Source of the DNA: a virus
Length of the DNA: 64,000 bases
Direction: 5' to 3' (one strand)
IMG/VR virus record: IMGVR_UViG_3300031413_000005
Span: 45,430 to 109,429 of that record
Positions 476 through 62,090 of this stretch are shown piece after piece. The position numbers and the translations under genes are program-made. Below the pieces are notes generated by a model, which had not been told where the DNA came from, ran no database searches, and saw only the letters and a list, made by a program, of their open reading frames with translations. Numbering within the stretch: the first letter of the stretch is position 1; every line of letters begins with the position of its first letter.

Positions 476-499
476 TGCATGGGTGTTGTTGACCATGCA
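476..499 (-). repeat. 24-bp dispersed motif
   Basis: tgcatg-ggtgttgttgac-catgca. Confidence 0.8.
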
Positions 500-509
500 C
501 AAAGAGCCG

Positions 510-1826
510 TCATTGAATCAAGAATTTTTTCAGCACGCCCATCAGCTTTGCGGGCATCTCGGCCACCTCGTTGATGACGAGCGAGTTAGGATAATAGCCC
601 TGCACGCCAGCGTATTTGATCCCGACACCGACCACATCGATCCCGGCCGCGGTGACCTCACGGACCATCTCGCCGGCATGCTGCTGGTAGGGGTGCGTCG
701 CGGGATTGACGCCGCGGTTCTTCTTGGGGTCAGCCTTGAGCGCAGCAGCGTCGGGGTGGAACACAGGCCCCATTGGTTTGCCGTCCGACATGACGATAAG
801 CATTTTGCGCTTCTGCGGTTGGGCGAGAAGACGGCGCGCTGCAAACTCGACCGAGCAGCCCTCGATCGTTCCGTTCATCGTGATGGCGCTGCGAGAGTCG
901 TGAACGGCAGCAAAGCGGCGCTGGACATCGAGATTGAAGGGCTCGTGAAATTCCTTGAAGCGGGGATACTCGAGCGGCGTCCAGCGCGTGATCGGCGCGA
1001 TGTCGTGCGCGCGCTGAACCTCGGCCTGATAGTCCGCGGTCGGCTGGAAAGTCATCGCGGTGGTATAGCCGACAACCTCGAAAGGGACGCCCACGCGCGT
1101 CAGCACAGATCCGAGCGCGTAAGCGGCGCGGACCGCAAGCGACATGGCTGACTGGTCCCAAGTGGACTGACCGCCGTTCTGCATCGAGCCCGAGCAGTCC
1201 AGCAGCAGCGTGATCGCGGTGTCGAGGGCAGGGGCCTCTTGCTTGCGGCTGAATACGCGATCGTCACCCGAGAGGACGCGATGCAGGTTCGGCGCGTGAA
1301 TGCGACCGCGGCGCTGACCGGGCAGGCGAACCGATTGCGTCTTGGCGGCGATCAGTCGCGTGATGTCTTTCTGAAGCGGACCGACCGCGGTTGCCGTTGC
1401 CGCCTGGATCTTGTCGAGCGTGACGCCGCGAGTGTTAATGTCGACGAGCTTGTCCAAGTCTTTCGTGAACACGCGGTAGGCGTGACTGCGATCCGAGAGC
1501 TGACGCTCGATGAACACGGACAGCATGTCGTCCATGTCGACCACGTCGGCTGCGCTGAACTCGATCGGCGTCTCGGGCGCATCATCGGCCCCGCCACCAG
1601 AGCCGCCCTCGTCCTCGATGTCGACACCGTCGTCAGCTTCCTCCCACGCGCTCAGCTGGTCCTCGAGCTCGCGCATCTCCTTGAGGTGATCCGCGAACGC
1701 GGTGCTGGATTTCTCAAGCGCCTTGAGCGCGGGCTTCTGCGCTTCAGGCCAGTCTTTCGAGTAAGGTCCGAACGTGTCGACGAGGTCGATTGCGGCGTCG
1801 ATTGCGATATTGAGGCTCACCGTCAT
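510..1826 (-). CDS. CobT-like C-terminal vWA (MIDAS) domain protein
   Basis: RGRIHAPNLHR...VFSRK, LLLDCSGSM (DxSxS), NGT, MLIVMSDGKP, VVGVGI. Confidence 0.85.
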   Translation of the reverse strand: MTVSLNIAIDAAIDLVDTFGPYSKDWPEAQKPALKALEKSSTAFADHLKEMRELEDQLSAWEEADDGVDIEDEGGSGGGADDAPETPIEFSAADVVDMDDMLSVFIERQLSDRSHAYRVFTKDLDKLVDINTRGVTLDKIQAATATAVGPLQKDITRLIAAKTQSVRLPGQRRGRIHAPNLHRVLSGDDRVFSRKQEAPALDTAITLLLDCSGSMQNGGQSTWDQSAMSLAVRAAYALGSVLTRVGVPFEVVGYTTAMTFQPTADYQAEVQRAHDIAPITRWTPLEYPRFKEFHEPFNLDVQRRFAAVHDSRSAITMNGTIEGCSVEFAARRLLAQPQKRKMLIVMSDGKPMGPVFHPDAAALKADPKKNRGVNPATHPYQQHAGEMVREVTAAGIDVVGVGIKYAGVQGYYPNSLVINEVAEMPAKLMGVLKKFLIQ

Positions 1827-3157
1827 TCCTTCATCAGCTTGGCGAGACCACGACGGGCCTCGCGCAACATTTCTTCCACTCGGTCAGCGCTCACGTTCAA
1901 TTCGCTCGCGATCTCGGTGACCGATTTCTTGCGTTTCTTATGCAAGAAAAGAGCGCGTCGAAGGGTGGGATCAAGCAACCCCAGCGCTTCCGTCATCGTG
2001 CGGTTGCGTTTCCCACCTTCGCCTGGGGCTGCGTCGTCTTCGGCGTCGGGCTCGTCGGCATCGTCTGGACGATCGCCCTCGTCGCGATCGCTGTCGGCAT
2101 CAGGAACAGGCTTGTCGCCTGGCTGATCGCTGGCTTCAGGTTCGCCTTCGTCACCGTCGCTATCGCCAGGCTCGTCATCGCCAGCATCATCAGCAGGATC
2201 GTCACCAGAACCGTCACCTTCCTCTGTGGCGTCAGCGTTATCGTCCCCAGCGGCGTCTGAATCATCTCCGGCATCGTCGTCGTCCTCATTGGTGGGCGAG
2301 CCGTCCTCGCCCTCGTCTGTATCATCGTCGCTCACGTCATCGCCGGGCTCAGAGCCTTCGGCGTCTTCGTCTTCGGAAGGCTCGGTCTCGCTCGGCTCGT
2401 CGTCATGCGTGCCTTCGCTGTCGTCCTCATCAGATCCCTCGCCGGGATCTTGTGAGTCCTCGTCGGCCTCCGGCTCGGGTTCGGGCTCTGGCGGGGCTGG
2501 AGGGGCCGGTGGGGGAGGCGGGGGCGTCAGCGCTTCCTTCAGCTTCTCCACGCACGCCAGCACGTCGTCGTAGGTCTCCATCGCGGCAACCTGCGCCCCA
2601 AAGCCAGGCAGTCGCTGCATCAGCGGCTCAACGATCGACCAGTAGCCCTTTTCGTCCATCAGCTGCTGGAACACCTTCTGCCCGCCAAGCGCGCGCATGG
2701 TCGGCATGAGCAACGCGGAGATCATGCGCTTCGGGTCACCAGACTTTGCGACGTCGTCGAGCATTGGCTGCACGATCAGCGGGAGCCAGTTGACATACAT
2801 GCGCTCAAGATTGTCCTTCGTCCCGGGCAGGTCGCGGGGCAGGAGCTTCTCGAGACGAATGTCCTCGAAGATGTTCGCGAAGGCGCCGCGTTCGGCGTCG
2901 ACCCGGCGATCTGGGATCTTGTCGAACGGCGTGTAGAAGATGTGGCCGACCTCGTGATCGAGGTAACCTTGGAGCGCATCGACGAGCAGCGCAGGGGCCT
3001 CGTCGGGGATCTCGGGCAGATTGAGACGCACGACCTTGCCCGTGTGTGGGTCAGCCGCCACAAACGGAGTTGCACCACGAAAGGTGACGGCTGTGCCCTC
3101 GTTCGTCAGCAGTCGCACGGTCCGTGCAAGTGCGTCCTTTCTCGATTGTGCCTTCAC
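1823..3157 (-). CDS. CobT-like N-terminal protein (HExxH), acidic linker, C-terminal sigma70 region-4-like HTH
   Basis: GYLDHEVGH, NIFEDIRLE, long D/E-rich linker, C-term RRALFLH..KSVTEIASELNVSADRVEEMLREARRGL; ATGA overlap with the vWA gene. Confidence 0.75.
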   Translation of the reverse strand: MKAQSRKDALARTVRLLTNEGTAVTFRGATPFVAADPHTGKVVRLNLPEIPDEAPALLVDALQGYLDHEVGHIFYTPFDKIPDRRVDAERGAFANIFEDIRLEKLLPRDLPGTKDNLERMYVNWLPLIVQPMLDDVAKSGDPKRMISALLMPTMRALGGQKVFQQLMDEKGYWSIVEPLMQRLPGFGAQVAAMETYDDVLACVEKLKEALTPPPPPPAPPAPPEPEPEPEADEDSQDPGEGSDEDDSEGTHDDEPSETEPSEDEDAEGSEPGDDVSDDDTDEGEDGSPTNEDDDDAGDDSDAAGDDNADATEEGDGSGDDPADDAGDDEPGDSDGDEGEPEASDQPGDKPVPDADSDRDEGDRPDDADEPDAEDDAAPGEGGKRNRTMTEALGLLDPTLRRALFLHKKRKKSVTEIASELNVSADRVEEMLREARRGLAKLMKE

Positions 3158-3169
3158 CGTATTCTCCGC

Positions 3170-3193
3170 TGCATGTGTGTCGTTACCTATGCA
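3170..3193 (-). repeat. 24-bp dispersed motif
   Basis: tgcatg-tgtgtcgttacc-tatgca. Confidence 0.8.
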
Positions 3194-3247
3194 CGTCTTA
3201 GCAGACGAGACCGCTCGCGCAAGTTGGCGGGCGGTCTCGATCGGTGG

Positions 3248-3424
3248 CTATAGAGGTTGGTGCGTGACGCGAATGCACACGCCGCCTGGTGAACGGTAAA
3301 TCAACCCCTTGGGGTAGTGAATCGCCACGCCTCCATCGCCCATCACCTGCCGGTGAAGATTCGATGCTGCGGCTTGTTCGTCTATCTCAGCAAACTCATC
3401 GATCGAGATGGCGTCAAGCGCCAT
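3248..3424 (-). CDS. small hypothetical protein
   Basis: ORF MALDAISIDEFAEIDEQ..., co-oriented with neighbours. Confidence 0.4.
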   Translation of the reverse strand: MALDAISIDEFAEIDEQAAASNLHRQVMGDGGVAIHYPKGLIYRSPGGVCIRVTHQPL

Positions 3425-3537
3425 GCCGGCTTCCCATCGACCAAAAGACTCCTGCACCCGCGACTCCTTCCAAGGGGTCGAGACGATGCAGGAGTTGAGG
3501 GAGGATTGCAACGAACAAAACGGGAACGAGTGTTCCT

Positions 3538-4137
3538 TTAGAGGTCCATAATCGCTTGCTTGAGAGCCTTGCGCTGCACCATCGACAGCCCGTTCTTGTT
3601 GATCTCGGGACGCTCGCTCCGAATCATGTCGAGCACGCCCATTTCCGGGACGCTGGCCCAGCGCCGCACTGCATTCCGATCGGCCGCTGCCTCACGGACT
3701 ACCGCGAACTGCTCAGCAGGCATGTCAGCGAGCGGAGCGCCGGATGCGGACTGGAGATCCTCGATCATCAGAGTTTCCTCGTCAACCCGGCCAGAGCGCG
3801 TCTTGGGGTCGCCTGCTGCCTTAGACAGCATGCGCCCGAAAGGTATCTGGGGGAAACGCTGTTCGAGCACGGCGAGCAGAAACTCGGGCGCATCGAGACG
3901 CAGCGTGCGAACGAAGTCCATTGCCCGCTCGACAGGGATTGGTGCTCGTCCGCTTGCCATGTGGCTAATGACCACCGACGACTTGTAGCCGAGCATGCCA
4001 GCTACGGTGCGCTGGCTAGTCCCGCTCTCTCGCTCGATGCGGTCGAGCCCAGCCGCGAACATACGGCAAGCCCGCGTGTTTGCGAGAGGGTAAGAACCCT
4101 CGTCTCGTTGTTCTGCCTTCAGCACTTTCGCTACCAT
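3538..4137 (-). CDS. XRE-like HTH protein, candidate repressor
   Basis: SQRTVAGMLGYKSSVVISHMASGRAPIP HTH; AAGGAG upstream; degenerate 24-bp motif in its leader. Confidence 0.65.
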   Translation of the reverse strand: MVAKVLKAEQRDEGSYPLANTRACRMFAAGLDRIERESGTSQRTVAGMLGYKSSVVISHMASGRAPIPVERAMDFVRTLRLDAPEFLLAVLEQRFPQIPFGRMLSKAAGDPKTRSGRVDEETLMIEDLQSASGAPLADMPAEQFAVVREAAADRNAVRRWASVPEMGVLDMIRSERPEINKNGLSMVQRKALKQAIMDL

Positions 4138-4459
4138 GATCGTTACGTCGCTCCTTTTCTTCTTCTTGTTGTGTTGTACGCTATGCACCTGCTTGTTAGC
4201 TAATCAACACACACCGCGCAAGACGGCTCACATGACAAATGGTTCAGTTTATCGATAAGCCAATCGACAAATCGACCACAAAAACCAGAACGTATAGAGA
4301 ACAACACACACTGGTATCGCAGGAATGCGATAGTTTACCGTTCTTCCCGAACGGCAAGTCCATGGTGATGAATTTCTGTGATCGAGATAATCGTCTGCTT
4401 CCCCAGCGAGGCGCGTGGAGCCCCGTAGGGGTGGAGCGCAGCGCGCCTCGCCCGTTAGA

Positions 4460-4669
4460 GAGAATCTGTTATTGATTCTGTTAAGTAAGTTAAGGTCAAA
4501 ATCGGCTTGCAAAATCAGTCACTTACAAGGGTTTCTGTAAGCGATAGACGAGTCAATGGAAGCGATAGACGAGCCGAATGCAAGCGATAGACGAGTCGAT
4601 ATGCAAGCGAAAGACGAGTCGATCTGGCAAATGTAAGCGATAGACGAGTCGATGTAAGCGAAACGCGTC
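4460..4669. other. plasmid replication origin: AT-rich region plus iteron array
   Basis: 19-bp repeats TG(C/T/G)AAGCGATAGACGAG(T/C)C at 4536, 4557, 4579, 4602, 4632 and a degenerate copy at 4653, spaced 21-30 bp, next to an AT-rich tract 4460-4535 and to repA. Confidence 0.85.
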
Positions 4670-5752
4670 TCACTGCGGCTCGGAGGCTCCCTTTTTGGCA
4701 ACCAGCGACTTCACGAGGTCAGGGAATGAGGCAAAATCGGCCGCGGTGACCGGATCGTCGATATGCTCAGGCGCAAAACGCGGTTCGACTCGTCTTTCGC
4801 TTACATTCGGGGCCGTCTCGACTCGTGTATCGCTTGCAATCTGAGCCGTGCGACGGGTGACTCGTCTATCGCTTGCGTTGGCTCGACGATGGAAGACAAC
4901 CTTGAGTGCCTTCAGCCCGCGGACCAGCTTAGCATCGACCAGCGCGGTGTCGCTCTTGTCGCCAGCAAGGGACAGTGAGATCTGATACTCTGGCAGGTCA
5001 TTTGCCTGAACGATGTCCAGCACCACCTGCTTGAAGTAGCGAGTGTTCTTATCCTCGTACCCGATCTTTTCCGCCAAACGCAGCAGGTTGATCGACCAGG
5101 TAGGTTGAGTGCCGCAGTGTTTGCGCGCCAGCTCGTAGACCCGACGAGCGATCCCCGAGGTAAGCTTGAAATAACCGGCGTCGATTGAGAGGATCGTTCT
5201 GTCTTCGACGATCTGGCGCCAAAGCCAGTCCTCCATCTCGACCTCGACCATGCCGGTCACTTTGCGGCCGTTAGGCAGCTCGCGTTCTGTCAGTTTCCCC
5301 GACTTGATCCACGAGAAGAATCCTTTTTCGTTGGTCGATGCGCCGGTCTTGATGTTGGTTCGGATCGTGGTCGACTGGAGCCGGTCGAGCGCAGCTTCGA
5401 GATCCTGATAAGCTCGACCTCCCGTGGACCGGCCGCAGCTGACGAAGAAGTCGTGGGCGTGGAAGCGAACGCGCTGGGAAACGGGCACTCCCTCATTCAT
5501 GCAGCGGTTAATGTGGCTCGCGACGAAGATCAGGAGATCCTTGTCCCAGATCGTAGCGAGTCCCTCGGGTCCAGGCCGCACCTCGAACCTGACTTTACCG
5601 TCGTCGTAGATCCGCTTCTCCATCACCTTCGTCTTGGAGATTGAGAAAAAGGGGAACTCCATCAGGTTCGTGATGTCTCGGAAGCTGACGCGATCCTGGC
5701 GATCCAGAAAGAGGTCAGGCGTTTCAACGATCTGGTTCACGGGCGCTCCCAA
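4670..5752 (-). CDS. repA: plasmid replication initiator (RepA/RPA family)
   Basis: LMEFPFFSISK, GLATIWDKDLLIF, GRSTGGRAYQDLEAALDRL, YFKLTSGIARRVYELARKHCG; flanked by iterons. Confidence 0.9.
   Translation of the reverse strand: MGAPVNQIVETPDLFLDRQDRVSFRDITNLMEFPFFSISKTKVMEKRIYDDGKVRFEVRPGPEGLATIWDKDLLIFVASHINRCMNEGVPVSQRVRFHAHDFFVSCGRSTGGRAYQDLEAALDRLQSTTIRTNIKTGASTNEKGFFSWIKSGKLTERELPNGRKVTGMVEVEMEDWLWRQIVEDRTILSIDAGYFKLTSGIARRVYELARKHCGTQPTWSINLLRLAEKIGYEDKNTRYFKQVVLDIVQANDLPEYQISLSLAGDKSDTALVDAKLVRGLKALKVVFHRRANASDRRVTRRTAQIASDTRVETAPNVSERRVEPRFAPEHIDDPVTAADFASFPDLVKSLVAKKGASEPQ
4787..4877 (-). repeat. three inverted iterons inside the repA 3' end
   Basis: GACTCGT(C/G)T(T/A)TCGCTT(A/G)C at 4787-4805, 4820-4838, 4859-4877 is the reverse complement of the iteron. 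Confidence 0.85.
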
Positions 5753-5848
5753 TGCAAGCGATAGACGAGCGGGCCTAGCGCGAATGCAAGGGATAGACGA
5801 GCCCTAAATGCAAGCGATAGACGAATCTTTGCAAGGGATAGACGACTG
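5753..5848 (+). repeat. four iterons over the repA promoter/start
   Basis: TGCAAG(C/G)GATAGACGA at 5753, 5785, 5809, 5830. Confidence 0.85.
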
Positions 5849-7463: not shown

Positions 7464-7624
7464 GCGTGCGCCACCCGGTAGCCCTCACCTGGCGGCGAGC
7501 AGCATGGGCATGGCTCGATCGACATATCATAATGCGACCCGATCACCCCGCGACCGCCGCAACGGATGCAGTGTCCGAACACCAGCGAGACGAGCTGAAT
7601 TAGTGCATGTGTTACGTTCACCAT
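7460..7624 (-). CDS. small Cys-rich protein (54 aa)
   Basis: MVNVTHALIQ...CIRCGG...PCPCC; exactly fills the helicase-primase gap; starts inside a 24-bp motif. Confidence 0.5.
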   Translation of the reverse strand: MVNVTHALIQLVSLVFGHCIRCGGRGVIGSHYDMSIEPCPCCSPPGEGYRVAHA

Positions 7625-7627
7625 TCA
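7604..7627 (-). repeat. 24-bp dispersed motif
   Basis: tgcatg-tgttacgttcac-cattca. Confidence 0.65.
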
Positions 7628-8968: not shown

Positions 8969-8992
8969 TGCATGTGTGTTGTTGACTATGCA
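8969..8992 (-). repeat. 24-bp dispersed motif
   Basis: tgcatg-tgtgttgttgac-tatgca. Confidence 0.85.
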
Positions 8993-10610: not shown

Positions 10611-10634
10611 TGCATGTGTGTCGTCTACCATGCA
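10611..10634 (-). repeat. 24-bp dispersed motif
   Basis: tgcatg-tgtgtcgtctac-catgca (consensus). Confidence 0.9.
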
Positions 10635-10681: not shown

Positions 10682-10712
10682 AAAAGACCGCCCCTCACGA
10701 GGAGGGACGGTC
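10682..10712 (-). terminator. rho-independent terminator ending the late/lysis transcript
   Basis: GACCGTCCCTC-loop-GAGGGGCGGTC followed by TTTT on the minus strand. Confidence 0.7.
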
Positions 10713-10726
10713 GGATAGAGGATTAA

Positions 10727-11314: not shown

Positions 11315-11428
11315 CTATTGTGTGTGTGGTTTACCATGCACTGCGGCGAAATGCAATCGCGGTGCGTTCGGGATGGACTTGCCGGGAGTGAGCAGCGCCA
11401 GGAAGGTCGCGAGGATTAGCTTGCGCAT
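11315..11428 (-). CDS. 37-aa hydrophobic peptide
   Basis: MRKLILATFLALLTPG...; TGATG overlap with the holin candidate. Confidence 0.35.
   Translation of the reverse strand: MRKLILATFLALLTPGKSIPNAPRLHFAAVHGKPHTQ
11317..11340 (-). repeat. 24-bp dispersed motif
   Basis: attgtg-tgtgtggtttac-catgca. Confidence 0.7.
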
Positions 11429-12338: not shown

Positions 12339-12362
12339 TGCAAGTGTGTTGCTTGCCATGCA
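12339..12362 (-). repeat. 24-bp dispersed motif
   Basis: tgcaag-tgtgttgcttgc-catgca. Confidence 0.75.
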
Positions 12363-18149: not shown

Positions 18150-18183
18150 ATACCAGATTGCATGTGTGTTATCTACCATGCAC
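18150..18183 (-). promoter_or_regulatory. 24-bp motif with -10 (34-bp promoter cassette)
   Basis: identical to 22201-22234. Confidence 0.85.
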
Positions 18184-22200: not shown

Positions 22201-22234
22201 ATACCAGATTGCATGTGTGTTATCTACCATGCAC
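22201..22234 (-). promoter_or_regulatory. 24-bp motif with -10 (34-bp promoter cassette)
   Basis: ataccagattgcatgtgtgttatctaccatgcac. Confidence 0.85.
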
Positions 22235-27692: not shown

Positions 27693-28010
27693 TCACTTGC
27701 TGTTGAAATTGGCCTGCATTTCGAGGAACTTGGCCTCGTCGAAGCCCTTGATGACGAGCATCGGCGAGCCGACCTCGGCGCGCAGGCTGGCAAAGAGCTC
27801 CTTCGCCGTGTCGCCGGAGCTGGCCGCGATCAGGAGCTGAAGGGTGCGCTGGTCACGCTCGGCCTGAAGGCGATCGATCTGCTTGTTGGCGGACCAGAAC
27901 GACTTCAGGGGAAGCGACAGAACCTGCGTGTGTGTCAGCCCGTATGCACTTGCTACGCGCCAGAAGAAGAAGGGGAGATCGACTGATTCCAGCCGGTCTC
28001 CCTCTAGGCG
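27693..28010 (-). CDS. tail assembly chaperone, T-like segment reached by -1 frameshift
   Basis: open -1 frame after slippery G GGA AAC (28010-28016): ...ESVDLPFFFWRVASAYGL...EMQANFNSK; no ATG near its 5' end. Confidence 0.75.
   Translation of the reverse strand, partial: RLEGDRLESVDLPFFFWRVASAYGLTHTQVLSLPLKSFWSANKQIDRLQAERDQRTLQLLIAASSGDTAKELFASLRAEVGSPMLVIKGFDEAKFLEMQANFNSK
27925..27948 (-). repeat. 24-bp motif, intragenic degenerate copy
   Basis: tgcgtg-tgtgtcagcccg-tatgca. Confidence 0.5.
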
Positions 28011-29027: not shown

Positions 29028-29063
29028 ATAATAACACAGTGCATGCGTGTGGTCTACCATGCA
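29028..29063 (-). promoter_or_regulatory. 24-bp motif with -10, upstream of the tail tube gene
   Basis: TAGACC-17-TATTAT on the minus strand. Confidence 0.8.
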
Positions 29064-32335: not shown

Positions 32336-32364
32336 AAAAGGGCGGGACCTTTCGGCCCCGCCCC
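32336..32364 (-). terminator. terminator after the major capsid gene
   Basis: GGGCGGGGCC-GAAA-GGTCCCGCCC-TTTT. Confidence 0.8.
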
Positions 32365-32374
32365 TGTTGAGACC

Positions 32375-32398
32375 TGCATGTGTGGTGGACACCACACA
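32375..32398 (-). repeat. 24-bp motif variant
   Basis: tgcatg-tgtggtggacac-cacaca. Confidence 0.55.
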
Positions 32399-32404
32399 CA
32401 CGGA

Positions 32405-33359: not shown

Positions 33360-33410
33360 ATCCTACATCAGGGTGCATGTGTTGTAAATACCACACACTA
33401 CCCTGATGTA
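33360..33410 (-). promoter_or_regulatory. capsid promoter TTTACA-17-TAGGAT within an 11-bp inverted repeat
   Basis: -35 at 33383-33388, -10 at 33360-33365; IR TACATCAGGGT / ACCCTGATGTA encloses a 24-bp motif variant. Confidence 0.6.
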
Positions 33411-34232: not shown

Positions 34233-34256
34233 CGCATGTGTGTTACAGACCATGCG
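34233..34256 (-). repeat. 24-bp motif with compensatory arm change
   Basis: cgcatg-tgtgttacagac-catgcg; abuts TTGCAA-17-CACAAT. Confidence 0.8.
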
Positions 34257-40029: not shown

Positions 40030-40066
40030 ATCATACCAGATTGCATGTGTGTTGCCTACCATGCAC
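40030..40066 (-). promoter_or_regulatory. 24-bp motif with -10, upstream of the portal gene
   Basis: 2 mismatches versus 22198-22234. Confidence 0.85.
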
Positions 40067-41928: not shown

Positions 41929-41952
41929 TGCATGTGTGTAGTCTACCATGCA
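41929..41952 (-). repeat. 24-bp dispersed motif
   Basis: tgcatg-tgtgtagtctac-catgca. Confidence 0.9.
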
Positions 41953-42192: not shown

Positions 42193-42480
42193 TCAGATTG
42201 AGGGTCTGAAAAGCGCATAACCCGCGGTGGTCGACGCATACGTGCGGAGTGAGCGCTTCCTCCTGGTCACGAGCTTATCCTCGCGAGCCAGACCATGCGC
42301 GGCGAGATGCCGAAGGCTGCACAACATGGCTCCCCGGGTCGTCCCCGGTGATACGAGGTCGATCAGCTGCATGAGGTCGAGCAGACTCCCGTCGGGATTG
42401 CGCCGAATGAGCGCCTGCATGATCGCCGTCTGCTTCGGGGTCATCTTGGGCGGAAGACGCTTCGCGTCGAGCTGCATCAT
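42193..42480 (-). CDS. winged-helix DNA-binding protein
   Basis: MTPKQTAIM...SLRHLAAHGL...YASTTAG; ATGA overlap with the GNAT gene. Confidence 0.55.
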   Translation of the reverse strand: MMQLDAKRLPPKMTPKQTAIMQALIRRNPDGSLLDLMQLIDLVSPGTTRGAMLCSLRHLAAHGLAREDKLVTRRKRSLRTYASTTAGYALFRPSI

Positions 42481-43391
42481 GGCATCACCAGCGGCATGTT
42501 CGGGGCCTGTGCGTCGAAGCACCGCAGCGGCAGGATTGCCGGCAGCGGAGCGGCCTGGACGGGGTTCTGGTAAACCCCGTAGAGCGGGCTCGCTAGGGTC
42601 ATCTGCTGGAGGTTGTGAAGCACGTCGCGCATGGGCATTGCGGCCACGCGGCGCTCACCCACACCACCCAGCGATTTGCCGGTCTTCTCCATCGATGAGT
42701 TCTTGTAATAGAACGATTTTGTTTGCTCCTCGATCGCCTTACGCTCGGCGATCGGCAGGCTCATAAATTCCTCCACGAGCGCCTCCAGATCGGCCGGATC
42801 GCTGGTGAACGTCGAGCGGAAAAACCGCATGCCCAGGTCGTATTTGTTCGAGCGCATCGGCTTGACGAACGTGAAGCCGGCGCGGTGCGCGAACAGGTTG
42901 TATTTCGACATCGACGACTGGATCTCGATGTAGCGTTTGCCCTCCATCCGAGCGGCCAGATTGGTGAACCGGTAGGCAAGCCCGGCGCCGCGGTACATCG
43001 TGTCGATGACGACGCGCGCCACGACCGACATATTCGCGTTGATCCACTTCATCCGGTATTGGTTCGTCAGCTTGTTGTCCTCGCCGGTGGGCTTCAGCTT
43101 CGGGAAGGCGACGTGCCGCTCCTTCAGCAGAAGCTTCGGGCTTGCCATCACCAGCACACCGACCAGCTCGTCGCCGAGCTTGAGCGTGAAGTGGTGCGAG
43201 CCGGCCGGGAGCGATCCTGCCTGCTTGTAGTGGAGGGCCTCGAGCGTGCGCCAGTCCTCGATCGTGCCGCGCTGGACGGTCATGTCGTCGAGCAGCGACA
43301 GCTTCGGCGTGGCGAGCGAACGCACGACGTCCCAGTGAACTTCCGGGTTGCGCTCCAAGATTCGCGGTTCTATGTGTGTGTTATCCACCAT
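42477..43391 (-). CDS. GNAT/Mom-like acyltransferase
   Basis: LHYK, ELVGVLV, ARVVIDTMYRGAGLA (acetyl-CoA motif A). Confidence 0.7.
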   Translation of the reverse strand: MVDNTHIEPRILERNPEVHWDVVRSLATPKLSLLDDMTVQRGTIEDWRTLEALHYKQAGSLPAGSHHFTLKLGDELVGVLVMASPKLLLKERHVAFPKLKPTGEDNKLTNQYRMKWINANMSVVARVVIDTMYRGAGLAYRFTNLAARMEGKRYIEIQSSMSKYNLFAHRAGFTFVKPMRSNKYDLGMRFFRSTFTSDPADLEALVEEFMSLPIAERKAIEEQTKSFYYKNSSMEKTGKSLGGVGERRVAAMPMRDVLHNLQQMTLASPLYGVYQNPVQAAPLPAILPLRCFDAQAPNMPLVMP

Positions 43392-43394
43392 GCA
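43371..43394 (-). repeat. 24-bp motif spanning the ABC stop / GNAT start
   Basis: tatgtg-tgtgttatccac-catgca. Confidence 0.7.
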
Positions 43395-44447: not shown

Positions 44448-45123
44448 TGAGCCACTCCGTGAAGGCTTCAGCGCCCTTCTTGCCGGTCGCGCCCTCAACC
44501 TCGGCCACGAAGCGCTTGAACAGCACCACCTGCGCGACCGGCACGCCGCGGAACCCGAACACCTTCGAGATCGGCTGCATGGCGGTGTCCACGGCCGCGA
44601 CCTTGTCGGCGGTTTCCGCATCCTGGGCGTCGAGCTCGGCGTCGAGATCCTCGGCCAGTCCGCCAAGATCCATCGCGCCCAGATCCTCGGTCAGGAAGGC
44701 GAGTTCGCGATCGTCGAGGCCAAGGCTCCCCAGATCGACATCGTCGACCATCGAGAGGCGAGCGATTTCCTCGGCCATGAAGCCGCTGTCGTAATCGGTG
44801 CCCTGCGTCTTGTTGTCGGCGATGCGCGCGGCGTCGGCCTGGTTCTTCGTCAAATGCTTGGCGTGACGCACCGGGAACTCGACGTGGCCCATCTCGAGCA
44901 GGCACGCGTAGCGCTTGTGACCGGCGATCAGAACCCCGTCGACATCGACGATCAGCGTGTTGATGAGACCGAACTCGCGGATCGACGCGATCGTCTTGTC
45001 CTTGTCGGTGCGGCTGTGGATCTTGTTGTTCTTCGCATACGGCGAGATGCGATCAGCCGTCCACATCTCGACGGGGAGACGCTGAAGGCCATAGGGGTCA
45101 TGCGTGTGTGTGTTGTCTGCCAT
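44434..45123 (-). CDS. ParB/Srx N-terminal domain protein
   Basis: PYAKNNKIH, SIREFG, IAGHKR, RIADNK. Confidence 0.85.
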   Translation of the reverse strand: MADNTHTHDPYGLQRLPVEMWTADRISPYAKNNKIHSRTDKDKTIASIREFGLINTLIVDVDGVLIAGHKRYACLLEMGHVEFPVRHAKHLTKNQADAARIADNKTQGTDYDSGFMAEEIARLSMVDDVDLGSLGLDDRELAFLTEDLGAMDLGGLAEDLDAELDAQDAETADKVAAVDTAMQPISKVFGFRGVPVAQVVLFKRFVAEVEGATGKKGAEAFTEWLNARP

Positions 45124-45126
45124 GCG
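45103..45126 (-). repeat. 24-bp motif encoding the ParB N-terminus
   Basis: cgtgtg-tgtgttgtctgc-catgcg. Confidence 0.7.
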
Positions 45127-45291: not shown

Positions 45292-45976
45292 TGGGGTCGT
45301 CCTTGGTGAGAATGTGCATCAAGGCGTCGCCAGCGTTTGTCAGATCGTCGGCATGGCTGAAGCCTTGTGCTTTCATGACCCCGCCCACGATGGCGCGCGC
45401 TCGCGCGGCATCTTGGATCGAAACCTTGAAACGGAGAATGTCGTGGGTCTTCGGCTCCTTCGTGGGAGCCTGGTCGAGCGTGTCGAGGTCACCGGGCGCG
45501 ATCGGGTCGTCGTCCAGATCCAGATCGGCCACGTTGACCGACAGGGAGGCGGTGAAGCCCTCCATCTCGCCGGCCGACCACGGCATGACCATCGCCAGAT
45601 CGATGTCCTTCAGCGAGCCGAGCAGCTCACCCAGCTTCAGCACGTCGTCGTGACCGTAGCGCGCATTGTCGAGCAGGCTGATTTCCTGCGCTCGCGCGTC
45701 GGGGATGATCCCAAGGTTGATGACGGGGACGGTGTCGAAGTCCAGGTCGCAGGCTTGCTCGACGCGGTGCCAGCCGCCTAGCGACTGATATTCCCCAGCG
45801 GGAAGACCGGCGACCTCGCGCACGACGACCGGGCGGAAGAAGCCGTGCCGCTTGAGCGACTCCTGGATCTTCAGCTCGTTTTCGTGGCTCACGACGTTCG
45901 TGTTCCACGGGTTGGGATGGATGAGACGGGGGTCGACCGCCAGGTGCTCATATTGCGCTGCGGGTGTGTGGTGCAT
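45275..45976 (-). CDS. ParB/Srx N-terminal domain protein
   Basis: PNPWNTN, SLKRHGFFRPVVVRE, GGWHR, DNARYG. Confidence 0.8.
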   Translation of the reverse strand: MHHTPAAQYEHLAVDPRLIHPNPWNTNVVSHENELKIQESLKRHGFFRPVVVREVAGLPAGEYQSLGGWHRVEQACDLDFDTVPVINLGIIPDARAQEISLLDNARYGHDDVLKLGELLGSLKDIDLAMVMPWSAGEMEGFTASLSVNVADLDLDDDPIAPGDLDTLDQAPTKEPKTHDILRFKVSIQDAARARAIVGGVMKAQGFSHADDLTNAGDALMHILTKDDPNATPA

Positions 45977-46042
45977 GCCACACATGATAACCCAAAAACG
46001 CCGGCAGATCCACGTCTCTTTACTCAAAGGAGCTATACACAA

Positions 46043-46066
46043 CGCATGGTAGACGACACGCATGCA
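46043..46066 (+). repeat. 24-bp dispersed motif (first flipped copy)
   Basis: cgcatg-gtagacgacacg-catgca. Confidence 0.85.
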
Positions 46067-46067
46067 G

Positions 46068-46096
46068 TTGCCAAACTACACTCAAACCGGTATGAT
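46068..46096 (+). promoter_or_regulatory. sigma70-type promoter, likely leaderless
   Basis: TTGCCA-17-TATGAT, ATG 7 nt downstream, 24-bp motif abutting the -35. Confidence 0.65.
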
Positions 46097-49482: not shown

Positions 49483-49506
49483 TGCATAGTGAATGACACA
49501 CATGCA
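49483..49506 (+). repeat. 24-bp dispersed motif
   Basis: tgcata-gtgaatgacaca-catgca. Confidence 0.75.
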
Positions 49507-49786: not shown

Positions 49787-50160
49787 GCCCGCGTCTCAAG
49801 GCTTTGAAGGCCAAGGCAACCAAGCGCTTTATCGCTTTCGTGATGATCCACTGCTCCACCCTGCGGGTCAGCTACAGCACGCTGATCGCCGAGCGCAACG
49901 CCCTTCGCAGGGACCTTGATGCACTAGAAGCGCGTCACACGCCGCTGATGGATGCAGCCTCGCGCTTCAACCGCATGCTCGACAACACGCACACACAGCG
50001 GCCCGGGTCGATCCAGTTGGTGATCGCCGACGAGCCCCTCGCACTCGCCTTCAAGACCAAGCTGAACAACCTCGTCCTCGCAGTCGAGGGGAAGCCGCTC
50101 ACTGATGACCCTTTCTTCGACCTGCCGGTGTCGGCCGGTCCCAGCCGCAGGATGCACTGA
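49783..50160 (+). CDS. hypothetical protein
   Basis: coupled at both ends. Confidence 0.55.
   Translation: MSPRLKALKAKATKRFIAFVMIHCSTLRVSYSTLIAERNALRRDLDALEARHTPLMDAASRFNRMLDNTHTQRPGSIQLVIADEPLALAFKTKLNNLVLAVEGKPLTDDPFFDLPVSAGPSRRMH
49972..49995 (+). repeat. 24-bp motif, intragenic
   Basis: cgcatg-ctcgacaacacg-cacaca. Confidence 0.55.
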
Positions 50161-51595: not shown

Positions 51596-51619
51596 CGTGT
51601 GTGTGTTGTCTACTATGCA
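51596..51619 (-). repeat. 24-bp motif (opposite to the ligase gene)
   Basis: cgtgtg-tgtgttgtctac-tatgca. Confidence 0.75.
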
Positions 51620-52824: not shown

Positions 52825-52848
52825 TGCATGGTATGCACCACACATGCA
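52825..52848 (+). repeat. 24-bp dispersed motif
   Basis: tgcatg-gtatgcaccaca-catgca. Confidence 0.85.
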
Positions 52849-55886: not shown

Positions 55887-55910
55887 TGCATGGTAGACGA
55901 CACACATGCA
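55887..55910 (+). repeat. 24-bp dispersed motif
   Basis: tgcatg-gtagacgacaca-catgca (consensus). Confidence 0.9.
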
Positions 55911-56665: not shown

Positions 56666-56666
56666 C

Positions 56667-58511: not shown

Positions 58512-58726
58512 ATATCATCAAGCCCGGCAACCTGCCCCAGGACGCCATCTACCGGGCGACGTGCTCCAGCTGCGAAGCGGTCTACGAGTTCGCCCGGCAC
58601 GAAGCGCGGTTCTCGACCGATCAGCGTGACGGCGATGCCCTCATCACCAGATGCCCGACGCCAGGATGCGGCAAGGAGAACTGGATCAACCCGAACCCCA
58701 AGCGCGGGAGCCAGTGGGACCGATGA
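58508..58726 (+). CDS. Zn-ribbon small protein
   Basis: CSSC...DQRDG...CPTPGC. Confidence 0.6.
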   Translation: MNIIKPGNLPQDAIYRATCSSCEAVYEFARHEARFSTDQRDGDALITRCPTPGCGKENWINPNPKRGSQWDR

Positions 58727-58953
58727 AAGCCCATCTCCTCGCCGGCACCGCGCCGCGCACCGTCCCGCCCTATCGGCCGCACCCGGTTCTGAAGAAGGCT
58801 CGCCAGGTGGAATCGGTCCAGCAGATGACGCAAGCCCTCCACAACGTCGGAGTGGCGGCTATGGCGACCGGCGTAGCTCTCAAGTCGGTGGTCGAGGCCA
58901 TCAACCTCCAGCAGATCGCACTGGCGCAGCGCCGCGCTATGAGGATGGGCTGA
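58723..58953 (+). CDS. hypothetical protein
   Basis: ATGA coupling. Confidence 0.45.
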   Translation: MKAHLLAGTAPRTVPPYRPHPVLKKARQVESVQQMTQALHNVGVAAMATGVALKSVVEAINLQQIALAQRRAMRMG

Positions 58954-59138
58954 CCGCTCCTTCCACCGTCGTAGCGGGTCTCTTGCCGTCGTAGCGGGCA
59001 TACTGTAACGCATCGCGTTACAGGCGGCGCGGTGGAATAAACCGACTTTCCCGCTACTCAGACACCACAAACTCAACCATTTGTTGACTCGGTGCGTTAT
59101 ACGATCATACGCTCAGTTCGCCAGGAAGGAGATGAACC

Positions 59139-59285
59139 ATGGCTACTCAGCTCGTCGTAGTTGCTCCTCGTAGTGGGCGCACCAAGAAAACCGCTCGACC
59201 CATGCAGACGCGCGTCTCCGCTGCGAGCGTGGTTGATCGTCTCTACGATCGCTTCGGACCGGACATGGCGCGTCTCGCTGAATGA
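59139..59285 (+). CDS. putative antitoxin (48 aa)
   Basis: AAGGAG RBS, TTGACT-18-TACGCT promoter, C-term VVDRLYDRFGPDMARLAE, ATGA overlap with the toxin; not in the ORF track. Confidence 0.6.
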   Translation: MATQLVVVAPRSGRTKKTARPMQTRVSAASVVDRLYDRFGPDMARLAE

Positions 59286-59863
59286 TCTCAACCCCGTTGT
59301 GGGTGACAGTGGATGAGGTGGTCGACCTCAACCGGCACGTCATCGCCAAGTCACCCATTATCGGCGAACCATTCGGCCTGACCGATCCGGCAGCATTAGG
59401 CTCCGCGGTTGCACGACCCATCCAGCATTTCAATTACGGCCCCGAGGATACCCAGGATGACCTGGTGCTCCTTGGGGCTAAGCTGTGCATTGGCATCAGC
59501 GAGGCACAGGCTTTTCGGCAAGGCAACAAGCGCACCGGCTTTGCCGCCATGGAGATGTTCTTCAACCTCAACTCATACGAGATCTCGCATGCGGCGGTCG
59601 GCCAGGTAGCCGAGCTTATCATGCGGTCCGCTCATCCAGATCACGCACAGCGGATCGATGACGAGGAGTTTGCCGAAGGTCTCGACCCCTATGTCGTGGA
59701 TTTCAACGACACGATCACGATGGGCGGCTTGGTCAGCGCTGGCAAGATGAGCCAGATTGCCTTGGCGCTAAGCGGGGTCACCGTCCAAGGCGTGACGATA
59801 GCGGAGATACTCAACCCGCCCAAGTGGACGAGCTTGGGGCTTAACCGCGAAGACGATGCGTAA
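59282..59863 (+). CDS. Fic/Doc-family toxin (variant motif)
   Basis: LGSAVARP, AQAFRQGNKRTG. Confidence 0.75.
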   Translation: MISTPLWVTVDEVVDLNRHVIAKSPIIGEPFGLTDPAALGSAVARPIQHFNYGPEDTQDDLVLLGAKLCIGISEAQAFRQGNKRTGFAAMEMFFNLNSYEISHAAVGQVAELIMRSAHPDHAQRIDDEEFAEGLDPYVVDFNDTITMGGLVSAGKMSQIALALSGVTVQGVTIAEILNPPKWTSLGLNREDDA

Positions 59864-60143
59864 GGCGCTTCAGATCGGCGTCTGACTGCGGCCCCCAGCG
59901 CGGAAACGACTTCGGCGTCGATCGATCGCACGGCCTGAAGCGGCCAGCGCCGCGCGTCCGACACCGCGAACACCGGAAGTGCCTGCCGCAGATCTCGAGC
60001 GAGTCAGGCCATCGGTGGACGTTGAACCACACATAGCAGATCGACGCCGCCACCACCCCGGTATGCCCGCACCGGCACGAGACGTGAATGTCGCAGTCGT
60101 GCCGCACGAAGTCGTAGATCCGGTGGAAGGTCTTGTTGCCCAT
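59841..60143 (-). CDS. Zn-binding hypothetical protein
   Basis: CRCGH...FRCSRC. Confidence 0.5.
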   Translation of the reverse strand: MGNKTFHRIYDFVRHDCDIHVSCRCGHTGVVAASICYVWFNVHRWPDSLEICGRHFRCSRCRTRGAGRFRPCDRSTPKSFPRWGPQSDADLKRLTHRLRG

Positions 60144-60224
60144 CGCCGGAACATAGCAGGAACGAGGACCACCTCAAGGCCGCAGGCCATAGCCAGCGGG
60201 GTAGTCACTTTTGCGAACGCGTCG

Positions 60225-60416
60225 TCAGGCGTGTCGCGTGATGTTCAGGGTGAGCCCGTTGCGGCGCGATCGGTAGAGGAAATTGCCACGCTGGTTCACG
60301 TTGTAGAGGCTCGCGCGATACGCGTTCAGCGCCTTCTCGGTCATGAAGCGCAGGTCGATCGAAGGGGCTACGCTCAACGTGAGGTGCAGCTGGGCGGGGG
60401 TGACTGGACGGGACAT
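60225..60416 (-). CDS. hypothetical protein
   Basis: AGGAG RBS; 24-bp motif upstream. Confidence 0.5.
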   Translation of the reverse strand: MSRPVTPAQLHLTLSVAPSIDLRFMTEKALNAYRASLYNVNQRGNFLYRSRRNGLTLNITRHA

Positions 60417-60439
60417 AATGCACTCCTGACAACACAAAG

Positions 60440-60463
60440 TCGGTGTGTGTGGTCTAGCATGCG
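60440..60463 (-). repeat. 24-bp dispersed motif
   Basis: tcggtg-tgtgtggtctag-catgcg. Confidence 0.6.
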
Positions 60464-60807
60464 TGCGCGTGGGTGCAAGCGGCGCCCGGCTGGCACCAGC
60501 TATCCCAGGTGTCGGAGGATGGCGTGGAGCCTCTGTGACAGCGGTTCGCGGATGGCGTGCATGTCGGGATCAGCTGGGGGCGTGGGAGCAGCGCATCGGA
60601 GGATGGGTCGGGGACGGGGAATGCGCTGGGGGCAGCGGGCTTCGCGGGGGCAGCGCATTGGCTGGGGCAGCGGGGGCGCGAGGGAGCGCGTGGCATACCG
60701 GAGGATGGCTGGGGCGTGGAAATCACCGGCCGATAGGCGGCATCCGGGTCCCAGGAGAAAAAATAAATTTAGGACTTCGAGTCGGTGTGTTGACACTTGT
60801 CGGAGGT

Positions 60808-60841
60808 AAACCGCGCGAACCGTAAGTGATTCGCGCGGTTT
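60808..60841 (-). terminator. hairpin terminator
   Basis: AAACCGCGCGAA...TTCGCGCGGTTT just after the 60848 stop. Confidence 0.65.
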
Positions 60842-60847
60842 GTTTCG

Positions 60848-61786
60848 TTACGCTGCGACCGTTGCTTGCGTCATGTAGCGAGCGCGGAACAGGTTAAAGA
60901 AACCATGATCCCGATTGATTGCGATACCGCCCCGCGCATGGTCAACCGTGACGATCGAGGCAAGGCCCAGCACGTCTAGCACGTTGCGCACCTGCGACGA
61001 CTGAGTGTCACGCCCACCGCTCATGAACTTGTGCTGATAGTCTTTAAGGTAGCTTGCAAGGTCAGCGTCAGACACAAGCTTGTCAAAGCTTGCGTTAGAC
61101 AAGAATGCCTTATTGACCTTGTTACCAATCGCGTTTGCATCCTTATCAGCTACTGCGACCGCGCAAGCAATGAATGCCTTAGAGACCGACTGAAAGCGCG
61201 CTGCATTACCGCAAATGAACATGCAAAGCTCCGTCACCTTGTCGAGACCTTTAGCGGTGAACTCATTCGACGACACTACCTTGCGACGGATCACGTTCAC
61301 CGGATCGACGCCCAGAACGATAAAGCCCCGTGCGACCGCGTTTGCGTTGTTCATCATGAACGTGCGGGCCTTAGCGTAAGAGGTCGACCGGTCTGCGAGG
61401 TCGAGACCGCGCGAAGCTTCGAAAGCGTCGCGAGCGTCAAAGGTTGCCTGAATGCGTGCGACCATAGCGTCCACGTCGGTCTGCGAGACCGCTAGAGCGC
61501 GATCACGCAAGTTTGCGGTATCTGCATCGGTCGCAGTGTCGAGCGTTGCCAGAACCGCGTCCACGTCGACCGTTTCGGCATTCGGTGCGATGCTTGCCAG
61601 AACCGCGTCAATGTCCACCGGTGCGAGGTCGCTCGATACATCTGCGATCAAGGCGAGCGAGGTGGATGCAATATCCTTAGCGACCGTCAGGCCATGCTTG
61701 TTTGCGTAGCGCGTCGCGGAACCTGCATTCTTGAAGCTGCGAACCGAAACAGAACCGTTAGCTGCGACGAGATTGAAATCGAACAT
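60848..61786 (-). CDS. hypothetical protein (312 aa, atypical composition)
   Basis: own promoter, TGAAAGGT RBS and terminator; internal VD.DAVLA repeat. Confidence 0.75.
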   Translation of the reverse strand: MFDFNLVAANGSVSVRSFKNAGSATRYANKHGLTVAKDIASTSLALIADVSSDLAPVDIDAVLASIAPNAETVDVDAVLATLDTATDADTANLRDRALAVSQTDVDAMVARIQATFDARDAFEASRGLDLADRSTSYAKARTFMMNNANAVARGFIVLGVDPVNVIRRKVVSSNEFTAKGLDKVTELCMFICGNAARFQSVSKAFIACAVAVADKDANAIGNKVNKAFLSNASFDKLVSDADLASYLKDYQHKFMSGGRDTQSSQVRNVLDVLGLASIVTVDHARGGIAINRDHGFFNLFRARYMTQATVAA

Positions 61787-61852
61787 TTTAAGACCTTTCA
61801 TGTGTTGCGCTTGCTACCTCTAGCTTGCGACCGCTTGTCGGTTAAACCGTTG

Positions 61853-62090
61853 CGGTGACATCTTTAGAGGAGCTTTCTGACCGATTCGCAAGGACTAAAA
61901 ACCCGCAGAAAACCGCGATTTTTGAAGATTCTTTGTCCCGGTTTGCGACCTAATCGACGAATCAGCGAGTCGATTTACCGATTCGGCGATTCGCAATGTC
62001 ACGAATCTACCTGGTCTATTTGTGTCATTCTCTAATGATGCGTGTGTGTGGTTGACTCTGCATCTAATCGGTCCTCTAACAGTGTCACCG
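61853..62090. promoter_or_regulatory. twin divergent promoters
   Basis: CTTGCG-17-CTCTAA (minus) and GTTGAC-17-CTCTAA (plus), both followed by NNNTGTCACCG. Confidence 0.6.
62039..62062 (-). repeat. 24-bp dispersed motif
   Basis: tgcgtg-tgtgtggttgac-tctgca. Confidence 0.7.

Follow-up and report, generated by a model that had tools for sequence, protein, structure and literature searches.

The virus record IMGVR_UViG_3300031413_000005 is a single sequence of 109,429 bp with 62% G+C, and here we describe a short asymmetric DNA element that recurs between the genes of its right 64 kb (bases 45430 to 109429, hereafter "the window"; coordinates are window positions unless marked as genome positions) and beyond. 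The window encodes a portal protein, the large terminase, a RepA-like initiator, a primase, DnaB, PhoH, a split CobT, and CobS, while the left arm of the genome carries DNA polymerase III alpha, RecA, a gp32-like protein, ribonucleotide reductase, and ThyX. The portal shares 46% to 49% identity with its counterparts in the Rhizobium RHEph10 group, SSU5, and enterobacterial phage-plasmids, and RHEph10 has a relative in the known phage-plasmid pLM21S1 (PMC7969092); the genome is a Sphingomonas-type phage-plasmid. Its sample source is a phyllosphere metagenome, and near-identical DNA is found in other plant-litter metagenomes and in isolate sequencing runs; the contigs of four DNA runs, which we compared, hold close relatives from metagenomes and isolate runs. 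Arrays of iteron-like direct repeats at 4541-4660 and 5758-5830 (core GCGATAGACGAG, often with tgcaa just before it) bracket the RepA-like gene at 4670-5752. No integrase was found in this genome, and a search with PF00589 (tyrosine recombinase) gave no match.

A preliminary description of the window had reported about 27 copies of a 24-bp element with 6-bp palindromic arms around an asymmetric core, and all 28 coordinates that it listed hold the sequences given there. The consensus 24-mer with up to 3 mismatches matches the window 11 times, as compared to 0 matches in 100 shuffles. For scans we used 2 position weight matrices (PWMs), one of them at family level with its own score threshold. 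The PWM scan of the full replicon that the description had proposed as a check yields about 44 copies in the 109,429 bp (25 in the window and 19 to its left) and none in shuffled sequence. The motif is real and more numerous than first counted, though some of the original sites do not stand: 4164, 7604, and 33374 are weak variants under the family threshold, the near-palindromes at 32375 and 45961 give a score on either strand, and 32375 is probably a hairpin and not a true copy. The element really spans 25 bp, as 31 of 44 copies have a G at position 0, and its information content of about 30 bits far exceeds the approximately 12 to 17 bits that would suffice for 44 sites.

These copies are placed in a highly ordered way. 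Forty of the 44 are intergenic or lie on gene borders, in a genome whose non-coding share is only about 11.5% on a rough gene map, and 41 of 42 distinct sites are oriented with transcription. They are all on the minus strand from genome 4.5 to 90.5 kb, where the genes are as well, and on the plus strand in the plus-strand gene block, so that the orientation flips at about 46.0 kb of the window; as already described, 51596 is the sole clear exception, and the minus-strand copies at 60440 and 62039 sit beside local minus-strand genes. About 10 window copies overlap the upstream stop codon or begin no more than 10 nt from it (11 had been estimated), and many end 10 to 30 nt ahead of a start codon led by a Shine-Dalgarno sequence. 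Replication, nucleotide-metabolism, packaging, head, tail, and accessory genes are found under one and the same element, which bears out the earlier remark that all kinds of genes are preceded alike.

The palindromic arms did not hold up in the same way. All 6 positions pair in only 11 of 44 copies, and the mean of 4.0 pairs equals what is obtained with partner-shuffled arms (4.08); in the closest complete relative, the arms pair at just 2.5 of 6 positions and the 3' arm is not complementary. An Rfam search with the motif gave no family match. The palindromic 6-bp arms are not a selected feature, and the arm changes at 34233, which had been read as compensating, are therefore only an anecdote. 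The suggestion that the element could be an RNA stem-loop loses its footing with the same numbers.

Relatives and phage specificity

Close relatives were found neither by megablast of phage records, nor by an exact-pattern scan of IMG/VR, nor by portal-based scans of IMG/VR and metagenome contigs. A degenerate pattern scan that covered 596 Gb of genomes gave mostly single chance matches plus 2 informative finds. The first is a 3.7-Mb Sphingomonas metagenome-assembled genome in which 28 of 28 pattern matches lie on 2 phage contigs; one of 119 kb, with a portal 61% identical to ours, and another of 18 kb together form a syntenic relative, which carries TGCATGGTnACTGACACACAC about 30 times. The second is a 3.3-Mb Novosphingobium isolate genome with all 12 of its matches in a span of about 97 kb (252.7-349.5 kb) on a single contig. 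This span belongs to an integrated syntenic prophage of about 100 kb (approximately 252,600-357,600) that adjoins serS and has 64 orthologues. Neither sphingomonad genome has a match outside of the phage contigs or prophage, and a reversed-pattern control gave 0 matches. In a third genome, a Sphingomonas sp. chromosome, one full bipartite match (2345-2368 of its stretch) lies upstream of hisB, correctly oriented and 10 nt before a Shine-Dalgarno sequence, and this was judged to be a chance match. The motif is thus confined to a phage family, and the possibility that it might be a host repeat of the repetitive extragenic palindromic (REP) kind, equally frequent on the host chromosome, does not agree with the 2 chromosomes free of matches.

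An integrated relative marks the family as temperate. This prophage lacks RepA and the iterons and has, at its far end, a weak tyrosine-recombinase match in place of the plasmid replication module, so that the phage family alternates between plasmid and integrated lifestyles.

Nine further IMG/VR fragments were found through an XRE-family protein described below. The family set comprises 126 copies in 10 sequences. Across this set, the conserved signal is bipartite (TGCATRGT-N5-ACACACA): TGCAT at positions 1-5 and ACACACA at 14-20 are nearly invariant, R6, G7, T8, Y12, and Y21 are also kept, and positions 9-11, 13, and 22-24 vary. The homogeneous GTAGAC core is local to our phage, and the idea of a co-evolving core (GTAGAC here as opposed to nACTG in the Sphingomonas contig) was dropped because positions 9-13 turned out to be just variable once additional relatives were included. 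Among relatives with protein identities of 30% to 75%, at least 14 copies are found at orthologous junctions, including those upstream of DnaB, CobT-N, CobS, ribonucleotide reductase, tail tube, capsid, a 123-residue tail gene, and ParB2 as well as the border between 2 ATPase genes. A phage-specific element at conserved junctions and in front of all gene classes fits a single regulon that is controlled in trans. The preliminary description had proposed such a master regulon, and we retain this part of it in a refined form, since the element appears to be a promoter core too and not an operator only.

Putative promoter geometry of the copies

A putative transcription start can be read from one locus that is shared by 7 genomes. 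In each of them, the stop codon of CobS is followed by a strong intrinsic terminator, 20 to 30 nt of spacing, a motif copy, and the gene of a protein with a zinc finger (CxxCxxHxxC) and a winged helix (genome 43920-44459, minus strand, just left of the window in our phage). The open reading frame (ORF) of this protein is in all 7 genomes an ATG that motif positions 20-22 supply; no Shine-Dalgarno sequence precedes it, and the N-terminus that it opens (M..P.GCFGS) is conserved. Likewise, the strong plus-strand copy at 49483..49506 provides at its positions 20-22 the ATG (49502) of a 94-residue ORF that has no Shine-Dalgarno sequence, and the Novosphingobium counterpart starts at the same motif positions; both proteins begin with MHH. 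Given that an ATG inside the motif is conserved and lacks a Shine-Dalgarno sequence, the simplest reading would be a leaderless mRNA starting at A20. Leaderless mRNAs, all of them AUG-initiated, have been documented in an alpha-proteobacterium (PMC3616915). In the Sphingomonas relative alone, a small additional ORF that carries CxxC/His motifs and by eye resembles an HNH endonuclease lies at approximately 78,500-78,870 of the contig, between CobS and the unit of terminator, motif, and regulator gene.

Independently of this locus, the trinucleotide TTG is found at −16 to −13 relative to the motif in 42 of the 126 family copies compared to about 5% expected by chance. A start at A20 would put this element at −34 to −29, as a −35 element, and motif positions 8-13 at −12 to −7, as a −10 element; the inferred start and the independently found −35 element would thus agree on canonical promoter geometry. 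In addition, 3 of the 4 strong terminators on the coding strand have a motif copy within the next 30 to 75 nt. Two independent lines of sequence evidence therefore place a likely promoter inside the motif. Other assignments were rejected by eye, i.e., sigma-54 (wrong spacing, no GG), the −35 and −10 elements of extracytoplasmic function (ECF) sigma factors (blocks too close), RpoH, CtrA, LexA, and DnaA boxes, and a −10 element at positions 3-8 (spacer to the −35 of only 11 nt).

The copies can be sorted by how they lie on host-type promoter elements. In class I, the motif covers the −10 and the start and has a TTG-containing −35 upstream; 11 copies of our genome were flagged as such, and TA occupies positions 8-9 in all 9 of them that are listed. 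The perfect copy at 10611..10634 (minus strand), upstream of PhoH with CTTGCA at −15 to −10, lies about 50 nt past an intrinsic terminator with a GC hairpin and T-run (10686..10716, approximate limits, minus strand; T-run at genome 56114; −21.9 kcal/mol), after which transcription must restart. Further members are a strong copy at 11317..11340 (minus strand) with TTGCAT at −15, followed by a Shine-Dalgarno sequence and start codon, a perfect copy at 55887..55910 (plus strand) with TTGCAA at −14, located 16 nt before an ATG led by a Shine-Dalgarno sequence, and a moderate copy at 60440..60463 (minus strand) with CTTGCA at −15, upstream of a 70-residue gene on the same strand.

In class II, the motif covers the −35 and spacer of extended −10 promoters in front of leaderless-type portal and tail genes. 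The strong copy at 18159..18182 (minus strand) starts 1 nt past a stop codon and has its core TAGATA 17 nt before TGgTATTAT, which is followed after 7 nt by the ATG of a 1431-residue tail gene without a Shine-Dalgarno sequence. Another strong, leaderless-type copy at 22210..22233 (minus strand) leads to TGgTATGAT, 8 nt, and ATG, with its orthologue at Sphingomonas 103630 leading to TAGGAT, 6 nt, and ATG. At the portal gene, the strong copy at 40042..40065 (minus strand) has its core TAGGCA 17 nt before TGgTATGAT, again 8 nt ahead of the ATG, and the portal copy of the integrated prophage shows TGGACA-18-TATAAT. In class III, the motif abuts the −35: the copy at 34233..34256 (minus strand) is followed after 2 nt by TTGCAA-17-CACAAT, and the perfect copy at 41929..41952 (minus strand) after 4 nt by TTGACA-17-CTAGAG and the ATG of a small-terminase-like gene. 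The copy at 46043..46066 (plus strand) lies in the divergent region and is separated by 1 nt from the rightward promoter that follows it (TTGCCA 46068-46073, TATGAT 46091-46096, ATG 46104); in antisense, it takes up the spacer and −10 (TACCAT) of TTGGCA-17-TACCAT, a leftward promoter that was read by eye.

This varied geometry suits occlusion better than activation. Promoters like those of class II work without an activator and have to be silenced in a lysogen, and because the family is temperate and its near-consensus late promoters are overlapped by the motif, the binder is most likely a repressor. We therefore consider that the regulator is probably a repressor, with positive control as a serious rival.

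The proposed regulator and competing explanations

None of the candidate proteins has been linked to the motif. The XRE-family helix-turn-helix (HTH) protein encoded at 3538..4137 (minus strand), a candidate binder in the preliminary description, is a real XRE protein with homologues that carry PF01381; it is conserved in all relatives, and a degenerate motif copy (4164..4187, minus strand, below both PWM thresholds) lies in the leader of its gene. The sigma4-like domain that had been noticed at about 1830-1990 is also a true similarity: the last approximately 80 residues of the CobT-N-like ORF at 1823..3157 (minus strand), a candidate binder or RNA polymerase partner, resemble sigma-70 region 4 (1850-1996; PF08281 at a sub-threshold 24.2 bits, weak NCBIfam sigma matches). 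The CobT-like gene is split in two in our phage, and RHEph10 has a single 836-residue CobT with a separate sigma gene after CobS. For the third protein proposed earlier, the winged HTH protein at 42193, the only match is an unnamed PHROG family.

The zinc-finger/winged-helix protein appears to be better placed than all of these. It is a homologue of RHEph10 gp046, and its gene has its own motif copy, with a degenerate 5' block in 3 genomes. An AlphaFold2 model (predicted local distance difference test score, pLDDT, of 78) contains a C-terminal domain similar to winged helices of the MecI, Fur, ArsR, and TFE types with generic Z scores of 7 to 8.4. The protein matches no Pfam or NCBIfam family and has no BLASTP similarity to the RHEph10 sigma factor; among PHROGs, only short N-terminal stretches of unnamed families were found (phrog_3616 over residues 3-36, E = 1.2e-7, and phrog_6337), and an Atlas search returned viral hypothetical clusters only.

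Sigma-70 promoters conserve an A at −11 and a T at −7. In the motif, these 2 bases are weak or absent, and it is the flanks at −19 to −15 and −6 to +1 that are nearly invariant over deep divergence. Since such conservation is unlike sigma-70 and comes with about 30 bits of information but neither an RNA polymerase nor a complete sigma gene, a phage protein that reads the flanks is an economical explanation. Searches for a phage RNA polymerase or complete sigma gene found none: PF04542 and PF00940 had no match (the control for PF00940 gave none either), and the RHEph10 sigma factor had no match in this genome. The scan covered 3 of the 7 ORFs of more than 600 residues, i.e., DNA polymerase III alpha, ribonucleotide reductase, and an SMC/SbcC-like ATPase, and the other 4 (960 to 1478 residues, unscanned) belong to the tail block and have matches in the relatives' tail region.

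We tentatively propose, with a probability of roughly 0.45, that every copy is a promoter core and that a single phage protein, which is probably a repressor, binds to its invariant flanks. Each copy would form a core from about −19 to +5 around a start at A20, where host RNA polymerase of the sigma-70 type would use T5-G6 as the "TG" of an extended −10 and T8-A9 as the first bases of a weak −10, and to which around one third of copies would add a TTGCA-type −35 sixteen bases upstream. TGCAT (1-5) and ACACACA (14-20) on both sides of the −10 would be the docking site of a single phage-encoded DNA-binding protein that switches all approximately 44 promoters together and, as a repressor, would prevent expression of the lytic genes as long as the phage is carried as a plasmid or prophage; at copies without promoter context, a stoperator-like role as a roadblock might come in addition. 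The motif with its phage specificity and conserved positions, the optional −35, and the conserved order of terminator, motif, and ATG are observations, and transcription start, protein binding, sign of regulation, and identity of the binder are what we infer from them. The more specific version in which one 25-bp cassette is both promoter and switch and the zinc-finger/winged-helix protein, expressed from its terminator-insulated, leaderless, weakened copy, sets all of the approximately 44 promoters is a good deal more doubtful.

Several points weigh against this proposal. The −10-like part of the motif is poor (A9 in about 51% of family copies, and A or G but never T at position 13, i.e., −7), so that promoter activity without a helper is uncertain, and two thirds of copies have no −35. 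The ATG at positions 20-22 could alternatively be read from transcripts that pass the terminator, given that many alpha-proteobacterial genes lack a Shine-Dalgarno sequence. There is no RNA run among the public runs that contain this DNA. The XRE gene is not divergently placed like that of a classical immunity repressor. Finally, the strict co-orientation is more than a plain operator would need, which we would explain by the promoter elements embedded in the site.

The most serious competitor keeps the same promoter cores and turns the sign of regulation around, with a phage activator or sigma-like partner reading the conserved blocks. The copies without a −35 would then fire only with this factor and those with a −35 would be early promoters that depend on the host alone; MotA/AsiA or gp55 of T4 and gp36 of phiEco32 are parallels. 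A helper is plausible with two thirds of copies lacking a −35 and a weak −10, and the span from −19 to +5 is what RNA polymerase would cover at the core of a promoter. A sigma region 4-like stretch forms the end of the CobT-N-like ORF, and the distant relative RHEph10 annotates a sigma factor directly upstream of gp046, whose homologue is likewise located before a DNA polymerase gene. Furthermore, the zinc-finger/winged-helix gene is itself driven by a copy, which would permit a positive loop, and the best Foldseek row for its product is the N-terminal domain of T4 MotA, though with E = 0.27 and alongside winged-helix matches that are generic (Z 7-8.4). Positive control is difficult to reconcile with the missing polymerase and complete sigma gene and with the incompatible positions that the copies take relative to good host-type promoters (over −10 and start, over −35 and spacer, or upstream of the −35), and near-consensus late promoters under copies would want repression. 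We therefore see it as possible, yet clearly behind our proposal of promoter cores under a probable repressor.

An array of pure repressor sites without any promoter activity, at which a bound asymmetric repressor blocks elongation at gene junctions and initiation where promoters overlap, seems unlikely. Our copies would suit it in being asymmetric, co-oriented, spread over all gene classes, and located in short intergenic gaps where they often touch a stop codon, which are described properties of L5-type stoperators (PMC9283540, PMC6550527), and the family is temperate. However, such an array leaves unexplained the enrichment of TTG at a fixed distance, the copies behind strong terminators, and the architecture of terminator, motif, and ATG at positions 20-22 in 7 genomes.

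Even less probable is an RNA-level element in 5' leaders, e.g., a CA-rich unstructured translation enhancer, a processing site, or the target of an RNA-binding protein. The co-orientation of copies 10 to 30 nt ahead of start codons would fit, as would ACACAC directly before the AUG of some genes and the copy at genome 24408, which turns its core into a GGAG properly spaced from its own ATG. Conversely, no selected hairpin or Rfam family supports it, the distance from motif to start differs between orthologous junctions, copies that precede their own downstream −10 and leaderless ATG lie outside of that mRNA, and the enrichment of an upstream −35 is a signal at the DNA level.

A site for DNA metabolism (recombination, packaging, partition via 2 ParB-like proteins, or replication polarity) with an orientation that follows replication is very improbable, as the single flip point at about 46 kb with 2 adjoining ParB-like genes is outweighed by strictly intergenic placement just upstream of start codons, the promoter geometry, and the copies at 60440 and 62039 that follow the local gene strand. 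Nothing points to the recombination site that had been considered earlier, and contig joints (flanks mostly of 20 to 28 nt with 80% likeness, in metagenome contigs often of other organisms) give no evidence either way.

Remaining copies and parallels in other phages

The other copies of the window lie at the following junctions, all on the minus strand up to 45126. The copy at 476..499, with a family score of 24.2, lies 10 nt past the stop of the CobT-C-like gene, with the CobS-like one downstream (orthologues at Sphingomonas contig 80155/80199 and in the Novosphingobium prophage), and the one at 3170..3193 lies 12 nt upstream of the GTG of the CobT-N-like ORF (Sphingomonas orthologue 82954). 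Just upstream of the DnaB-like region, a weak copy occupies the gene junction at 7604..7627 (score 17.1), and a strong one at 8969..8992 is found 6 to 9 nt before the start of the DnaB-like helicase gene (Sphingomonas orthologue 86764). A moderate copy at 12339..12362 precedes a 166-residue gene, with 89927 as the orthologous Sphingomonas junction. In the tail region, a weak copy (27925..27948, score 20.1) lies upstream of the tape-measure gene, and the copy at 29040..29063 sits between 2 small tail genes, upstream of the tail-tube gene and with TATTAT at +31 (Sphingomonas orthologue 110120). The variant upstream of the major capsid gene (33374..33397) has one CA unit fewer and is reached by neither PWM, though its Sphingomonas orthologue at 114466 is strong. 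A strong copy at the border of 2 ATPase genes (43371..43394) contains the stop codon of the upstream gene (orthologues C126 16847 and Novosphingobium 349518), and the copy at 45103..45126 precedes the second ParB-like gene (orthologues C126 15062 and Novosphingobium 351157).

The weak and partly palindromic copy at 45961..45988, on both strands, coincides with the start of the first ParB-like gene. Beyond the flip point, a weak plus-strand copy (49972..49995, score 16.3) falls within an ORF, and another plus-strand copy (52825..52848) lies upstream of a 151-residue gene. The reversed strong copy at 51596..51619 (minus strand) is located upstream of an ATP-dependent DNA ligase gene; the ligase copy of the Sphingomonas relative is co-oriented with TTGACG upstream. 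A moderate minus-strand copy at 62039..62062 lies 237 nt upstream of a 317-residue gene on the same strand. The accessory region at the right end, which is poor in the motif, encodes a Fic/DOC-family protein (59282-59863).

The near-palindrome at 32375..32402 (both strands) directly precedes the terminator behind the capsid gene, as do its equivalents at Sphingomonas 113520 and Novosphingobium 341281. This arrangement of a short TGYGTG...CACRCA palindrome and a strong intrinsic terminator is kept in 3 genomes (window 32339-32402, Sphingomonas contig 113520 and 109532, Novosphingobium 341281), and in one relative it is probably also present behind the tail-tube gene, a position that was inferred.

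Genome-wide sets of regulatory sites are known from several phages. Among the closest to ours are the operators and stoperators of Cluster A mycobacteriophages, known from L5 (gp71), Bxb1, and TipsytheTRex (Rep) (PMC9283540, PMC6550527). Both systems consist of dozens of asymmetric, co-oriented, lineage-specific sites in short intergenic gaps near stop codons across the early and late genes of a temperate genome; in our case, these are about 44 dispersed copies, with a temperate relative integrated in Novosphingobium and a RepA-like gene with iterons. In contrast, the known site measures 13 bp and binds a monomeric HTH repressor in actinobacterial phages, while ours is bipartite, 24 to 25 bp long, and found in sphingomonad phage-plasmids, with a −35 at fixed distance in a third of copies and an ATG inside the element for several genes, so that it appears to contain a promoter. 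No gp71 homologue turned up here, though no search was aimed at gp71.

Similarly, the approximately 15-bp SPBRE is repeated in promoter regions across the large temperate phage SPbeta, where the master repressor MrpR (YopR) binds it to maintain lysogeny, and it had been predicted in silico long before this binder was found (PMC10516654). MrpR differs in its tyrosine-recombinase fold (PF00589 has no match here), and the sequence and length of the repeat as well as the host phylum are different. T1-like phages such as Stevie and T1 carry 16 to 20 copies of an asymmetric, mostly intergenic, transcription-oriented 22-bp repeat of unexplained role (PMC4319613); unlike ours, these are lytic enterobacterial phages, and their repeat has an unrelated AT-rich sequence with no reported promoter geometry.

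The phage-plasmid P1 uses about 17 dispersed asymmetric C1 operators of 17 bp that overlap the promoters of many operons and respond to one repressor but are not strictly co-oriented. It thus shares with our proposal a one-repressor set of dispersed asymmetric operators on a phage-plasmid, though number, length, and co-orientation of the sites differ and nothing indicates that the phages or their regulators are homologous. A preprint about an E. coli phage-plasmid contained no information on operators. Phage-specific promoters, like the 23-bp promoters of the T7 type or the T4 gp55 and phiEco32 gp36 promoters that have no −35, are comparable as long, conserved, co-oriented elements at about −19 to +5 of many transcription units. 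They differ from our case in that we found no phage RNA polymerase or complete sigma factor and that part of the copies come with a host-type −35.

A further parallel comes from RHEph10 itself, which is distantly related (portal 46% identical) and has the 18-bp near-palindrome TCAGTMAATATTGAYTGA in at least 16 intergenic places. These copies lie upstream of partly the same genes (DnaB, CobS) and over −10-like hexamers, some of them with a TTG −35 seventeen bases upstream, and look like that phage's own genome-wide operator set. Its site is a true palindrome of unrelated sequence, i.e., the architecture is common to both phages while the site is not, and the strategy seems to be common across this distant group while the sites differ.

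Our cassette is therefore of a known general kind, a genome-wide phage switch, with an undescribed sequence, geometry, and lineage. As a sequence tag, the motif can reveal members of the family in metagenomes and genomes (2 were found here), and the Novosphingobium isolate with its integrated relative makes the question experimentally accessible. The element would also allow the leaderless expression of a phage regulator to be tested and offers a point of comparison for the independently evolved stoperator, SPBRE, and P1 C1 networks. Regulation in phage-plasmids related to SSU5 and RHEph10 is essentially unmapped, and if the more specific version with the zinc-finger/winged-helix protein is true, the family would have a Gram-negative counterpart of the SPBRE and stoperator networks in which both the type of regulator and the site geometry are new. 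If one cassette holds both starts and switch for about 44 transcription units, the whole transcription map of these 100- to 120-kb elements could be read from sequence, and a single protein-DNA pair would decide between carriage as plasmid or prophage and lysis.

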